NCBI GenBank assembly: GCA_963847625.1
Contig: CAWKAR010000027.1
Span: forward strand, 192,001-256,000
Length of the DNA stretch: 64,000 bases
Direction: 5' to 3'
Origin: a candidate division FCPU426 bacterium
GTDB taxonomy: Bacteria > Oederibacteriota > Muellerivitia > Muellerivitales > Muellerivitaceae
Shown here: piece after piece, positions 29,661-62,892 of the stretch
Numbering within the stretch: the stretch's first letter is position 1
How the letters are laid out: every line of letters starts with the position of its first letter
The notes under the pieces: generated by a model
What the model was told of the DNA's origin: nothing
Database searches by the model: none
The model's input: the letters and a program-made list of their open reading frames with translations, nothing else
Program-made: the position numbers and the translations under genes

Positions 29661-30513
29661 AAAAGCCCTCGGCCGAGGGTTGGAAGCCCTCATTCCGAAA
29701 AAGACTTCCGACGATAAAAAAGGGCATGCCCTGCAGATTCCCGTATCCCAAGTCCAGCCCAATCCTTTCCAACCCCGTAAAATATTCCGACCCGAAGAAC
29801 TGCAGGAATTGATCCATTCCATCCGGGAGAAGGGAATTCTCCAGCCGATCCTGGTGCGAAAAAAGGGGGAACATTGGGAAATCATCGCGGGGGAACGCCG
29901 GTTCCGGGCCGTGCAAAAATTGGGCATGCTGACCATTCCCGCCGTCGAAGTCCAGGTTTCCGACGTGGAGGTCCTGGAAATGGCTTTGGTGGAAAACCTC
30001 CAGCGCACCGACCTTTCCCCCCTGGAAGAGGCCGCGGGTTATCACCGGCTCCAGGAAGAATTCAACATGACCCAGGAGCAAATAGCCCAGAAGGTCGGCA
30101 AGGACCGTGCCACCGTGGCCAATACCTTGCGCCTCCTGAAGCTGACGCCCGAAGTCCAGTCTCTTCTTTCCTCCGGCCAACTCACAGCGGGTCACGCGCG
30201 CGTACTCGCGGCTCTTTCAACACCCCAGGAACAACTGAAATGGGCGAAAAAAATTTCTCAACAAGGATTGCCCGTGCGGGATGTGGAGAAATGGCTGCAA
30301 AACCAAAAAGGCCCGGTGAAAAAAACAAAATCCTCAAGCGGCCCAAAGGACCCAAACTTGACAAAATTGGAGGAAAACCTCCGCAATTGGCTTGGTACGA
30401 AAGTTTCCATCAAGGCCCTTGGGAAACAAAAGGGAACAATTTATTTGGAATATTATTCCCTGGATGATTTGGACCGGATTTTGAATTTGTTCCGCAAGGC
30501 CGGCTACCGTTGA
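29653..30513 (+). CDS. parB: chromosome partitioning protein ParB/Spo0J
   Basis: LGRGLEAL, NPFQPR, GERRFRA, ENLQR, HTH. Confidence 0.96.
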   Translation: MAKKALGRGLEALIPKKTSDDKKGHALQIPVSQVQPNPFQPRKIFRPEELQELIHSIREKGILQPILVRKKGEHWEIIAGERRFRAVQKLGMLTIPAVEVQVSDVEVLEMALVENLQRTDLSPLEEAAGYHRLQEEFNMTQEQIAQKVGKDRATVANTLRLLKLTPEVQSLLSSGQLTAGHARVLAALSTPQEQLKWAKKISQQGLPVRDVEKWLQNQKGPVKKTKSSSGPKDPNLTKLEENLRNWLGTKVSIKALGKQKGTIYLEYYSLDDLDRILNLFRKAGYR

Positions 30514-57997: not shown

Positions 57998-58168
57998 ACG
58001 CTACCGGCATAACCGGATTTCTGGTAAACGGAAGCCGCATTTCTGGTAAACAGACCCCCGTTTCTGGTAAATAAGGTTGGTTTTTTGGTAAACACCCGCT
58101 GGCATACCCGGATTTCTGGTAAACGGGGCCCGGGTTTTTGTTAAACCGGATCGTTTTTTGGAAAACGC
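57991..58168. repeat. short-core/variable-spacer array (core TTTCTGGTAAAC, ~8 units, mostly 20-22 bp period)
   Basis: Core CTGGTAAA or variants at 57991, 58021, 58043, 58064, 58085, 58116, 58138, 58158. Confidence 0.8.
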
Positions 58169-58277: not shown

Positions 58278-60675
58278 ATGATGCCACGCCATCCCCTGGG
58301 ATTCATCCTCGCGGTTCTTCTGTTGGCGATGCCTTTCGCCTGCACAAAAAACTTCTCCACCCCCCCTATTTCCCCCGCTGGGCCTGCCCCGACCTTGACG
58401 GCCACCGTCCCCCCCCTCTCCGACGGGCACTATTAGCCCGAGCCCCACCAACACCCCTACCCTGACCGGGACGATGTCGCCCACCTATTCCCCGACGGGG
58501 ACACCCACCGGCACCCCGACCAATACGCCGTCGCCTCTGCCTTCGCCCCAGGGGGTGCTGGGATGGCTGAACCCGTCCTCCAATCCCCAGATCTTCTGGG
58601 CGACCGACCCCAGTCCCGAGGTGACCGGGTACCGGCTTTACATAAGCAATAACGGGACCAGCTACTCTCCCACCAGCATTTTCAGCAAGACCGGGACCTA
58701 CATGTACGTGGACCACAGTATCGGCACCACCTTCAACTATTATTATTACGTCGTGGCCACAGGCACCCGGCCGGACAGCCCGGCTTCCCGGGTGGTGCAC
58801 GCCATATCCGGCACCACCGCCTCCAACAGCCTGACCCTCACCGCCTCCAATTCCACCACGCCCGTTTATTCCATCACCAATGGAACCGTGGCGGGTGCCA
58901 CGCGCAGGGTCTGGCTGACCTTCCAAACCTCCAACGTGTTCGTGGATTGGGTTTGGGGCGAGGAGGCCGCCGTGCTGACCAGCGTGAATTACGGCTACGC
59001 CGCCACGGGCATCACCTACCAGCCGGCGGCCGTGCTTTCAAGCGGCACCCAGTACGGCTTGCTCGTCCATACCTTCAACGCCAGCAACTGGGATATCGAC
59101 GTGAGCACCGTGCTTTTCACGCCGGCCGTGACGCCCACCGCCAGCCCCACGCCAACGCCGACCCTCACGTTGTCGCCCACTATTACCGACAGCCCGACCG
59201 TCACCCGGTCGCCGACGAATTCGCCCACCCCCACCCCGACCGTAACACCTACCCCTCCCCCAACGGTGGTGGCGACGCCGTCCAGTTCACTGGTTCTCGC
59301 CGATATGGAGTGCGATTGCCCCTCCCTTTACCCGCAAAACGGCATCAATGGGTTTTTTTCCACCTCCAACGATACAATTGGCTCCACGGTTTGGCCGCCC
59401 GCCGGCTCTTACTTCGTGATGTCCTCTCCTGGGTATAATTCCAGCTACTGCGCCAGGATCACCGGAACCGTGGCGGCTCCCGGGGCGGCGCAAACCTGTA
59501 CCAACTCCTTCGGCCCTGTTATCACCTATAACAATCCCTTTGCGTCCATGGAAGCCAATTTCGTAACACAGGGAAGCTATAACATCCCCTCGAGCATCAC
59601 AGGCATCGCTTTCAATATGAAGGCATCCTTTACCAACACCTGCATTACGCCGGTAGTGCGTTTCATGGTTTACGACACAATCACCACCGCCACTAACGAC
59701 GCCAATGGCGTCAACCTGCCCATCACGGTTCAAGGTTCCTGGCTGCCTTCGCCAGTGACGGTTTTTTTCAATCAAATGACCACTACGGGAAAAACGGGCG
59801 GCACGCCACAGACACACTCATTCGACCAAGCGCATGCGGTCCAGTTTCAATGGCAAGTGAACTACCCCTGCAATTTCGACATATCTGTTGATAATGTCAC
59901 GTTCATTACGGACTCCCCTCCCGCGGCGGCTAACCCCCTGCCCGGTTCATCGGGTTGGCCGGTGTCCTTGATTGATAACTGTGAACAAGGCTCCAACTTC
60001 AGCCCTCCCATAGCCAACCGGGACGGGGGACCCTGGTTTACTTATCGCGCTACGAATATCAACCCGCCTGACGTGATATGCCCTGGGGCAGGCTACCCTT
60101 TCCAAATGAGTCCGGGGGGTGGTCCCCTCAGCCCGCAATACGCCGCCCATGTGACCGGCACCATGAGTTTCCAGGGAACTACCCAGGGTTATCCGGGTTT
60201 CGGCGTTCATTTCAAGGGGGCGGATTCATGCGGGTATGACCAGGTTTACGATATCACGCAAGGCGGTTCATACAACTTTACCGGGATACAGTTTTACGTA
60301 AAGGTGGGATCAAGCACAATGTTTGGTTTTCAAACTTTCATGATCGAAATACCTGATGCGTCGACCGATCCGAATATCGCAAGTCCGACATGCCAGAATT
60401 ATTTATATGCTTGTAACGGAAACAAGGGAACATTGTGGGATATGGCTACAGATCCCAACAATTTATGGGGTGGAGATGTATACGACACATGGCTAGGCCC
60501 CGTTAAGATTCCCTTTAGTAATTTTACTCTTCCGAATTGGGCCACTAATAATCCCGTCAAAGCGATTCAACTTAATCAGGCGGTTGGCGTTCAATTTCAG
60601 GATGTTTATACCAATGGCACGCAGACTACCGCGGGTAATTTTGATATTTGGATCGACGACCTTAGTTTCTATTGA
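58278..60675 (+). CDS. large surface lipoprotein (FN3-like domain, Pro/Thr linkers, two CBM11/CIA30-like domains), frameshifted at C8 (58409-58416)
   Basis: MMPRHPLGFILAVLLLAMPFAC lipobox upstream and out of frame; VTGYRLY...YYYYVVA; two domains ending FDISVDNVTF and FDIWIDDLSFY. Confidence 0.7.
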
Positions 60676-60932
60676 TCGGCTGGGGTTTTGAACCTCTCCC
60701 TGGACCGGCCCTCCTTCCTGAAATAGCCCCCTCATGGTTTGCCTGTCGGCATAGGCTGATACCACTGTCGGCATGGATGGCCTGCCCAACATCGTAAGCT
60801 AACCCAGTTCCCGGCTTTACCGCGTTTACCGGGTTCCCTTGTTCCCGGGCCTGCCCCGAGTGTTCCAGTGGTTCCAGGCCAGCTAGCGGTGAGTTTATCG
60901 AACCTGTTCCGGAGTTCCCGGGTTCCGTGGTA

Positions 60933-61670
60933 CCTAATAGCAGATTTCGGGGTGCCTAGTAGCAGGTTCGGCGGATCTGTGGGCACGATCCGGGCGCCCT
61001 GTGGGCATGAGCCGGTGGCCCTGTGGGCATGTGTCGGCGCCCTGGGGGCATGGTCCGGGAGTCCTGTAGGCATGGGCCGGTGTCCCCTGTAGGCATGGGC
61101 CGGGAGTCCTGTAGGCACGGCGCAAGAGTCCTGTAGGCACAGGCCAGTACCCCTATAGGCATGGGGCGTGCCGCCTACTGGCAGGTCTGGGCTACCTACT
61201 GGCAGATCAGGGCTGCCTACTGGCAGTTCCGGCGGTGCCTACTGGCAGGTTCTGGGCTACCTACTGGCAGGTCCGGCGAACCTACTGGCAGGTTTCGGGC
61301 TGCCTACTGGTAGAATCGGCTGTACCTACTGGCAGGTCGGGGCCGCCTACTGGCAGCTTCCGAGTCTCCTACTGGCATGTTCCTCCAAACCCGTTAAACG
61401 GGGCGGAACCCATTAAACGAAGCTGGGCTAACCCGTTAAACGGGATGGAACCCATAAAACGGAGCCGGGCCAACCCATTAAATGGGACGGAACCCATTAA
61501 ACGGAGCCGGGCCAACCCGTTAAACGGGGCGGAACCCATTAAACGGAGCCGGGCCAACCCGTTAAACGGGGCGGAACCCATTAAACGGAACCGGGCTAAC
61601 CCATTAAATGGGGCGGAACCCATTAAACGGAGCCGAGCTAAGCCATTAAACGGGACTTAACCCATTAAAG
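60933..61670. repeat. composite phased array of 35 units on a ~21.5-bp lattice with blockwise-changing cores
   Basis: 2x CCTARTAGCAG, 9x CCTGTRGGCAY, 10x CCTACTGGCAG, 14x AACCCRTTAAAY. Confidence 0.9.
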
Positions 61671-61677
61671 AGGGTGC

Positions 61678-61760
61678 CCTGTAAGCCTGTAAGCCGGTAA
61701 GGCGGTAAGTCGGGCGGTAAGCCTGTAAGTTGATAAGGTAGGCTGTAAACCTGTAAGCCC
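61678..61760. repeat. degenerate 8-bp tandem repeat (CCTGTAAG/GCGGTAAG)
   Basis: cctgtaagcctgtaagccggtaaggcggtaag... Confidence 0.75.
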
Positions 61761-62343
61761 TATCCGACAGGGGCCCCGCCTTTCCGACAGGGCGTCCGTC
61801 AGGCAGCTTTGGTAGACAAGCCGCCTGCCCCACGAAGCTTCAGCATAGTGGGGGGTTCCAGGGGCCTGGGACGGCAATCCTAAATTCTCAATGTTAAATG
61901 TTGAATTATCGAGGATTTCCGAAATGCGGAAATCTAACCTAAATTTATAATTTAAAACTCAACATTCAAAATTGGCTTTTAATGAGTTCCCGGGTTCCCG
62001 GCTAGCCAATAAATTGGGTTTTGGCTGGGTCTCTGGGCCCCTTCGGGAACCTCAGGGCAGGTCACTGTGGTGAAAAGTGGTTTTTCGACGGCCTTTAAAA
62101 CCCGATTTTCCAAAGAATTCCCGCCTTTTATTCCAGAACGGTAAAATATTGGTACTTCCAAGACGATTGTGAGGATGAGCTTGCCCTGACATGTCTCCCG
62201 GAGTTGCTTGCCCCTCGACATGTGTCTCGAAGCTTGAGCGTAGGGACAAGCCCGAAGGGGGTAGTGGGATAACGAAAGGAGAGTGAAATGAAGGAAGTCC
62301 AACTCAGGGACCTAGGGTGTACAAAGAAATTAGAGTCAAAAAA

Positions 62344-62892
62344 ATGACAAGTAAAATATCCCAAAACCAAAACAAGCTTAAAAAATATTTATTCGAAACG
62401 ACCGCCAATTTTCCAACTATTTGGCTTTCAAAAGGCAAGGAATTAAAAAAAGGCGCCGATGTACTATTGGCATCGGATGCCAATCATTTATATTTGTTTT
62501 TAATCGCTTTTTCTTTTGAAAATCTTTTAAAAGGGATTTTGATATGTGGTGGATTAAATAGAAAAATCAAATTATTAACTCTTAGGAAATGGGAGGGTTT
62601 AGGCCACGACTTATTACATCTTTCAAAGAAAAGTAATATTTCTATAAGTAATCATGAAGAGAAAATCTTAAAGCGGTTAACGAATTATTCAATGTGGGGA
62701 GGGCGTTATCCTATACCAGTTGATCCCGAATATTACCCAGAAATAATAGAGTTCCCCAAAGGATCACCTATGCCAAATATTTACTTCGAAAGCAGCGATC
62801 CCCAAACTATTAATAAGTTATATGAACGTTTTGAAAAAAATCTTCAATTGAAAATAAGATATTTAGGAAAAAATACTAATAAATACTCCTAA
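62344..62892 (+). CDS. AT-rich hypothetical protein, HEPN-like
   Basis: ENLLKG...GHDLLHL...GRYP pattern. Confidence 0.55.
   Translation: MTSKISQNQNKLKKYLFETTANFPTIWLSKGKELKKGADVLLASDANHLYLFLIAFSFENLLKGILICGGLNRKIKLLTLRKWEGLGHDLLHLSKKSNISISNHEEKILKRLTNYSMWGGRYPIPVDPEYYPEIIEFPKGSPMPNIYFESSDPQTINKLYERFEKNLQLKIRYLGKNTNKYS

Follow-up and report, generated by a model that had tools for sequence, protein, structure and literature searches.

A composite tandem array with a 21-22-bp step in a candidate division FCPU426 genome and its candidate ParB-like readers

The array locus

We have analyzed a tandem-repeat array in a genome of candidate division FCPU426 (assembly GCA_963847625.1, 94% complete), referred to here as G000. 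The window is the 64,000-nucleotide stretch of contig CAWKAR010000027.1 (C27) from position 192,001 to 256,000; window positions are used below unless a contig is named, and the features around the array are collected in Table 1. The array, at 60933..61670, is an orphan composite: it consists of four blocks (A to D) with different cores, and no gene of the protein family described below lies nearby. A sequence-only reading of the window had proposed 35 consecutive units (2 A, 9 B, 10 C and 14 D), all of which were confirmed at these coordinates.

Table 1. Features of the array and its surroundings (window positions)
Feature	Position	Strand	Remarks
Second, smaller orphan array	58013..58150	+	Core TTTCTGGTAAAC, identical to the core before paralog G000:C3:27833
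Thr/Pro-rich lipoprotein-like gene	58278..60675	+	Between the two arrays
Patch of additional short repeats	60742..60930		Upstream of the array
Block A, 2 units	60933..60975	+	Core CCTARTAGCAG, that of the array before paralog G000:C45:76490
Block B, 9 units	60976..61173	+	Core CCTGTRGGCAY
Block C, 10 units	61174..61387	+	Core CCTACTGGCAG
Block D, 14 units	61388..61670	+	Core AACCCRTTAAA; 19/23 bp alternating (42-bp period)
C and D segment	61229..61682	+	Unit-for-unit sister copy at G000:C27:278875-279326, 26 kb away, 85% (blastn)
8-bp GTAAGCC-type block, then two TTCCGACAG units	61676..61806		Both common to other array loci
AT-rich heptamer inverted repeat	61871..61990		Separate dispersed family, frequent beside arrays
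Conserved promoter-like module (TAAAAT)	62081..62189	+	Downstream of arrays and co-oriented at 5 G000 loci
AT-rich ORF	62344..62892	+	Downstream of the array; no Pfam/NCBIfam match

Several of the flanking features recur at other arrays. A module of the upstream patch (60862-60924) is common to two other array loci of G000 and two of the related genome G001, and the TAAAAT module, a putative promoter, is also found beside one G001 array and at two G000 sites without a detected array. A sigma-70 scan of 60600-62400 gave no consensus promoter and did not pick up the TAAAAT module. The heptamer inverted repeat has about 25 other sites in G000 and also occurs in-frame inside the linkers of the paralogs. 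None of the ORFs flanking the array received a name from Pfam or NCBIfam, and neither a gene of the HTH family nor a remnant of one was found near 60933..61670; the ORF downstream of the array is possibly a regulated gene. The signal peptide of the lipoprotein-like gene (58278-58436) is out of frame with the 733-aa body, as a result of either a frameshift or an assembly slip. The chromosomal parB gene also lies inside the window, at 29734-30003 (G000:C27:221734), and contig C27 carries 7 of the 41 arrays of the genome where 3 are expected (Poisson p 0.03), a weak hint of array enrichment near the origin.

Units, steps and core conservation

The core counts quoted by the sequence-only reading hold for the units themselves; the exact consensus is present in only 6 of 9 B, 8 of 10 C and 12 of 14 D units, the rest being variants. 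The mean step is 21.38 bp over the 34 steps of the array, with single steps in one frame of 21-23 bp in A-C and 19/23 bp in D. A spacing of 21-22 bp had been claimed for every block boundary; the first two are indeed 21 and 22, and the third is 20 by the core starts used in that reading. With block D placed in the frame common to the other cores, the boundary steps become 21, 22 and 21. The short units of block D (61388-61670) are, by eye, dyad-symmetric about one base, in a G-C form in four and an A-T form in two.

The contrast between near-identical cores and differing spacers, which had been drawn for blocks A-C, is borne out in B and C, with the correction that the spacers are interrelated and have a consensus in each block. 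Mismatches to the consensus in block C number 2/110 in the core and 38/100 in the spacer (Fisher p 2e-12), and in block B 10/99 and 27/90 (p 8e-4). In block D the excess of core over spacer conservation is weak, both in the short units (4/77 against 8/56, p 0.12) and in the long units (1/66 against 6/60, p 0.053), and the spacers are near-identical. We compared these contrasts with a neutral model, in which duplication and uniform mutation were simulated with free choice of the best 11-bp window. A neutral minisatellite process had been named as one that might reproduce the contrast; none of 3668 matched runs was as extreme as block C, and 110 of 4528 were as extreme as block B. A look-up of the spacers in the genome gave 175 matches against 133 for shuffles, a comparison that is little informative at lengths of 9-12 bp.

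The array is real, and an assembly artefact is unlikely because the block types recur in a second species and contigs from a public run carry pieces of the array. These low-depth contigs, from one public DNA run, contain array pieces and flanking gene sequence that is 99% alike, without spanning the locus.

Related arrays in the genome

Scanning the genome and its relatives for 20-23 bp periodicity revealed comparable arrays, with 41 merged intergenic loci in G000; a second detector gave 45. Some 20 core types are distributed over the 41 loci, whose match lags peak at 21-22, 42-44, 63-66 and 84-88. Pattern scans across relatives used the cores of the carriers and are partly circular for that reason; the reversed-pattern control of one scan also matched G001 (44) and G022 (3).

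The sister copy of the C and D segment has the same C/D junction and shares spacers with 61229..61682, and segments have therefore been copied between loci. Several of its units have A or A/C hybrid cores at positions where the array has C, so that cores appear to have changed in place. The sequence-only reading had suggested a templated enzyme, which would add units singly with new spacers. Such an enzyme could account for core blocks that change on one lattice, and we regard it as highly improbable: the sister copy retains the same spacers and junction, block order varies among loci, and no recurrent enzyme gene was found beside 56 loci of the protein family. The sister copy thus leaves the addition of units unsupported and indicates the copying of segments.

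A ParB-like protein family downstream of the arrays

When the neighbours of all G000 loci were listed, one protein family was found to recur seven times directly downstream of arrays. In its members a helical N-terminal domain of 140 residues is joined by a linker to a hydrophobic helix, which is usually followed by an outer part with a PDZ-like end. The hydrophobic helix (mean KD >= 1.3) is present in 35 of 37 genes, the other two being truncated, and is a putative membrane helix from which we infer the membrane topology. The PDZ label of the outer end rests on weak Pfam matches (E 0.0025-0.008) and Atlas leads below 0.9. Modelling a full-length paralog from its sequence alone gave nothing usable (pLDDT 33.5), and the PH-like label of the outer domain is for this reason a reading by eye. 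Four short paralogs (L004, L043, L046 and L072; 219-249 aa) have no outer domain, and all of them have 43-bp units, with two different cores.

Pfam and NCBIfam gave no name to the N-terminal domain, and a sequence search of the PDB with it returned nothing credible. Its structural model (pLDDT 84) matches best the DNA-binding domains of ParB, Noc, KorB and SopB, with scores below the firm level (Foldseek E 0.04-0.16; VIA Z 7.6 and 7.3); hhalign of the domain to the ParB of G000 itself gave a probability of 0.8%. No ParB_N (CTPase) domain was found in the 7 G000 paralogs or in 6 library members; in the array-linked proteins the HTH begins at the first residues. The family profile also reaches longer proteins with Pfam ParB_N and HTH_ParB; ParB_N was present in 7 of 7 long representatives, 6 of them above the cut-off, which favours an origin of the family from ParB in which the CTPase domain was lost. 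This long form is likely the source of the short form. It is multi-copy, with up to 6 genes per genome, combines ParB_N and HTH with long C-terminal parts, some with a membrane helix and PDZ-like or TPR ends, and is found without arrays in G001, G002, G013, G014, G016, G019, G022, G023, G078 and others.

The short form turned up in 9 of 31 genomes of the taxonomic family and in none of the 68 other genomes of the phylum. In a library of 1.84 billion the family profile matched 57 clusters at E 1e-30 or better; scans of the viral and genome_contigs sets gave no match. Neither ParA, nor an integrase, nor any other recurrent neighbour gene was found beside 56 family loci of 3-9 kb, in a survey where genes were clustered and only part were annotated; the largest other cluster comprised 4 loci. 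Paralog fragments without the HTH domain are found at G000:C3:22620-24200, C34:111360-111520 and C63:93177-93347, with arrays absent in the flanks shown.

Every one of the seven intact G000 paralogs has an array upstream, and no two of these arrays have the same core. In seven genomes together, an array of 21-22- or 43-bp units lies within 500 bases before the start of 36 of 37 short-form genes, with 73-393 covered bases; at the 37th, array and gene are split by an IS. In a held-out test, an array was predicted beforehand and found before 4 of 4 genes in two more genomes. The same prediction was carried to metagenomes; the search returned 26 loci, of which two partial ones and one without flank were set aside, and an array precedes the gene in all 23 with enough flank (about 16 distinct genes). 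By comparison, none of 24 homologs with the long N-terminus reaches 73 covered bases, the lowest short-form value; the two highest reach 64 and 63, and one of these is a coding repeat. DNA chosen regardless of arrays contained 6 arrays in 400 kb from the carrier G001, whereas 773 kb from G002 and G013, two genomes with the long form only, contained none; the genomes in this comparison are kin and thus dependent samples. One genome, G011, has a composite array yet no match to the family profile. Between array and gene, the conserved motif TGAC-N4-ATCAT occurs in several genomes, at L046, L043, L030, L038, L078 and L142-L145, and was not seen before the G000 paralogs; we take it to resemble an FNR/CRP box. 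Because arrays directly precede almost every family gene, each with its own core, these ParB-like paralogs, with their predicted membrane anchor, are likely the readers of the arrays and are our candidates for that role.

Several gene-adjacent arrays extend into the ribosome-binding site, and array orientation follows transcription. Together with the report that Bacillus satellites are transcribed (PMC8625621, available text), these features would suit arrays acting as RNA, either as a transcribed leader or as processed small RNAs. We consider this improbable. Relative to shuffles, the two strands gain about the same folding stability (z -2.9 and -3.5), which gives no strand signal; Rfam produced two weak matches far below gathering scores and no family, and a Nop match is absent from the 94%-complete genome as well. 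A period of this length suits the DNA helix, and a DNA-binding fold is predicted for the linked protein. The guide-RNA option of the sequence-only reading is not supported, in view of the same Nop and Rfam results and of the spacers, which have a consensus and are near-identical in block D.

Orphan arrays and their cores

The cores of all seven G000 paralogs recur in orphan loci. At least two copies of one resident core are present in 23 of 33 orphans; among random windows this was true of 1 in about 3000. In G019, G022 and G023, too, orphans carry cores of paralogs of their own genome, and two paralog cores confined to G001 are present in G001 orphans and absent from G000. No G000 paralog corresponds to blocks B, C and D or to some ten further core types, and orphan cores without a matching paralog were likewise found in G001, G016 and G023. 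For block B, no paralog with its core exists in the G000 assembly and the nearest paralog cores of relatives are 2 positions off. The block C core is 2 changes from that of block A and 1 from the core of a G022 paralog. The block D core, also without a matching paralog in the G000 assembly, is one or two changes from paralog cores of relatives; the same type makes up the far end of the C34 paralog's array, and the core preceding metagenome gene L168 is similar to it.

Most orphan arrays point the same way as the upstream gene (25 of 34, p 0.009) and as the downstream gene (22 of 32, p 0.05), on crude ORF calls; for replichore polarity (19 of 27) the contig skew was too noisy to be of use. In G001, G002 and G023 the orthologous glycosyltransferase gene has no array after it. 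Three of ten G001 orphan sites, and probably a fourth, are arrayed in G000 too, with other cores.

These observations bear on an explanation in which only the gene-adjacent arrays are operators, and orphans are by-products copied by recombination into variable intergenic hot spots, where they drift or serve as passive sinks. The copied segment did inherit its spacers, the site of the array is not common to a same-genus genome, IS elements, toxin-antitoxin genes and other repeats surround arrays, and most blocks of 60933..61670 have no resident paralog. Against such an origin stand the cores, which are far more conserved than spacers within this very orphan, the orphan sites common to G001 and G000, and the prevailing co-orientation with the upstream gene. 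We rate it as unlikely, though the main competitor of the reading proposed below.

Covariation of cores and recognition helices

Core similarity tracks the recognition helix modestly and in a manner that depends on the method. With 49 genes and automatic core extraction, no other 7-residue window scores as high as that of the recognition helix (by ranks, partial r 0.148, p 0.012 over all windows; raw 0.215, 0 of 2000 permutations). A 36-gene set gave p 0.09 in the rank test over all windows, and pairs with a held-out gene gave p 0.11, the first HTH helix scoring equally high. A k-mer cosine test was negative, as was a test by per-position information, for which the blind alignment misplaced several cores. 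The nearest neighbour by helix was the better guide in 14 cases and that by the rest of the domain in 13. Trees provide 1-3 supported independent pairs, too few to use. Blind core predictions for three held-out genes gave partial matches only, and of four core rules set beforehand, one proved right in 4 of 6 new cases, one could be applied to close kin only and two had no case to apply to. L162 and L078 have the same helix and the same core end, as do L151 and the C45:76490 paralog; in both pairs other genes match better overall. The pair L079 and L164, at 76% identity, differs in both helix and core.

At the residue equivalent to ParB R173, all 13 genes with Arg have a core that ends in AC, compared with none of 9 genes with Asp; this tally was hand-framed, was noticed post hoc and comes mostly from one clade, and the Arg changes only 3 times on the tree. 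In ParB, R173 contacts guanine and specificity is set in the recognition helix, according to the available text of PMC7383237, which the association of Arg with AC-ending cores parallels. A residue-level code between helix and core is suggested, and only suggested, because the other tests are negative, the advance rule held in 4 of 6 cases and independent pairs are too few.

An ordinary minisatellite that was co-duplicated with one gene family, and has no binding relation to it, could give a covariation signal this small; gene and array are co-inherited in close kin, and 20-23-nt satellites occur in many bacteria (PMC8161180, available text). We judge it quite improbable, given that the neutral simulation fails for block C, that nine genomes and many metagenomes preserve the period despite their changing cores, that long homologs of the ParB_N type have no arrays, and that what covariation there is peaks at the HTH.

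Comparison with known systems

The repeats belong to a known class. The available text of Subirana and Messeguer (PMC8161180, PMC6749651) describes non-coding bacterial tandem repeats of constant length and variable sequence, with units of 20-23 nt and also 40-44 nt; these satellites are intergenic and species-specific, with several families per genome, a short motif in each unit and an open role. Our array has 35 units of mean length 21.38 bp where their definition takes at least four units of 20-23 or 40-44 nt, and the roughly 20 core types at 41 loci correspond to several families of the same length in one genome. It is unlike the published satellites in that one array unites several families on a single lattice, and in having candidate cognate proteins tied to it by position and partly by covariation; the available text of PMC8161180 and PMC6749651 names no such proteins. 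The sequence-only reading had ranked the array as an undescribed system, which does not stand for the repeat class, already in print (PMC8161180), and does stand for the link to a protein family as far as the available text of that paper goes. In the main text of the literature that we searched, ParB paralogs that lack the CTPase, are anchored in the membrane and have private arrays are not described. Proteins with a ParB-CTPase fusion have been surveyed (10.1101/2025.10.10.680097); the survey mentions neither PDZ nor FCPU426 in its available part, and its design leaves out proteins without the CTPase fold. What is new is a strong positional and a modest sequence link of arrays to an undescribed ParB offshoot. 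A 2020 paper in J. Bacteriol. on constant-length repeats reportedly included a 22/44-nt class and guessed at protein binding, and may bear on how new this link is.

Compared with ParABS systems, the family has a predicted ParB-type HTH domain (with the fold scores given above) and lacks the N-terminal CTPase domain, and a ParA gene is not a recurrent neighbour at its 56 loci. The cores are 11-bp direct repeats, some with partial dyad symmetry by eye, and not 16-bp palindromic parS sites; no perfect palindrome of the parS type was found in G000. ParB-parS and Noc-NBS share the predicted DNA-binding fold, and the AC core end resembles the parS half-site (PMC7383237, available text). Noc also ties dispersed sites to the membrane (same source), by means of an N-terminal, CTP-gated amphipathic helix, whereas here a hydrophobic helix follows the DNA-binding domain. 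The family further differs from ParB and Noc in its membrane helix, outer domain and many paralogs with private cores, and clamping or spreading is not expected because it has no CTPase domain.

Replication iterons are helically phased, and the unit of sopC is 43 bp. In plasmid centromere and iteron arrays (sopC, type Ib parS, tubC) the sites lie before the gene of the binding protein and double as its operator, as the available text of PMC5016525 describes. The family genes would show the same layout if their proteins do bind the arrays; it is absent at the orphan 60933..61670. By analogy, the array may work like such a plasmid array read by a ParB-type domain, with the differences that it is chromosomal, one of about forty dispersed loci, has no adjacent motor or Rep gene and would have a membrane-anchored reader. 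Membrane-anchored regulators of the ToxR/CadC type and RodZ connect an HTH in the cytoplasm to an outer domain through one membrane helix. They differ from the present family, which has a ParB-type domain and long phased arrays, and in which four paralogs end soon after the membrane helix.

TIGR-Tas arrays, like ours, alternate short conserved repeats with short variable stretches (PMC12045711, available text), with a 36-nt dual-repeat unit where ours is 21-22 or 42 bp and has related spacers, near-constant in block D. A further mark of TIGR-Tas is that its arrays are processed into small RNAs. The sequence-only reading had noted that no Nop-domain Tas gene was visible, and indeed neither the G000 assembly, at 94% completeness, nor the flanking ORFs gave a match to PF01798. 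CRISPR repeats and unique spacers are some 25-45 bp each, in contrast to the 11-bp cores and related 8-12-bp spacers here. By the features examined, the array is not a ParABS, Noc, TIGR-Tas or CRISPR locus.

Proposed role of the arrays

Of the options raised by the sequence-only reading, the phased protein-binding lattice is the one that gained support, and position, fold and covariation now name a candidate reader. With a probability of roughly 0.6, we propose that a lineage-restricted family of ParB-type DNA-binding proteins, anchored in the membrane, binds the array as a phased lattice, the use of orphans included; position, domain make-up and covariation are the computed elements of this proposal, and binding, membrane topology and function the inferred ones. 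Each 11-bp core would be a putative half-site for one HTH head, and the step of 21.4 bp, two helical turns, would place all sites on one face of the DNA, presumably the sole face that heads fixed in the membrane could reach. The array before each family gene would serve as the operator of that gene, and through orphan composites several paralogs could hold, repress or titrate other chromosomal sites at the membrane. As a recognition helix changed, cores would be replaced in place under selection while spacers drifted, giving rise to blocks. Block A would bind the C45:76490 paralog, and blocks B-D would bind paralogs that are relaxed, unassembled or lost; the array at 60933..61670 may be idle.

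A further-reaching version is tentative, and we would sooner doubt than accept it. Here the arrays would form a chromosome-to-membrane address system, in which CTPase-less ParB heads in the inner membrane have private 11-bp cores at intervals of two helical turns, composites act as multi-address docking strips for several paralogs, the outer PDZ-type domain couples the heads to the state of the envelope and cores are rewritten as helices change.

The constancy of the 21-22-bp length across unrelated repeat families is a stated open question in the available text of PMC8161180. The lattice would offer a specific answer in one lineage, one that specifies the proteins, the cores and a geometric basis for the length; were the address system true, it would be the first protein-level explanation of this satellite length. 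The ParB offshoot would have given up the CTPase clamp in exchange for a membrane anchor and diversified into paralogs that each have sites of their own. If orphans are occupied, they would represent a new mode of attaching or regulating chromosomal loci at the membrane. With approximately 50 recognition helices, each naturally paired with a DNA site, the family would lend itself to the study of specificity change in ParB-type proteins.

Other array loci

Array neighbourhoods contain IS elements, toxin-antitoxin genes and other repeats. IS elements lie inside arrays at four G000 loci (C34:107557-108877, C35:7005-8486, C45:74969-76345 and C3:149622-150996) and beside several more, and arrays may be preferred IS targets. 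In G023, which belongs to another genus, an orphan at L149:12677-13020 has an A-type followed by a D-type block, in the same order as in 60933..61670.
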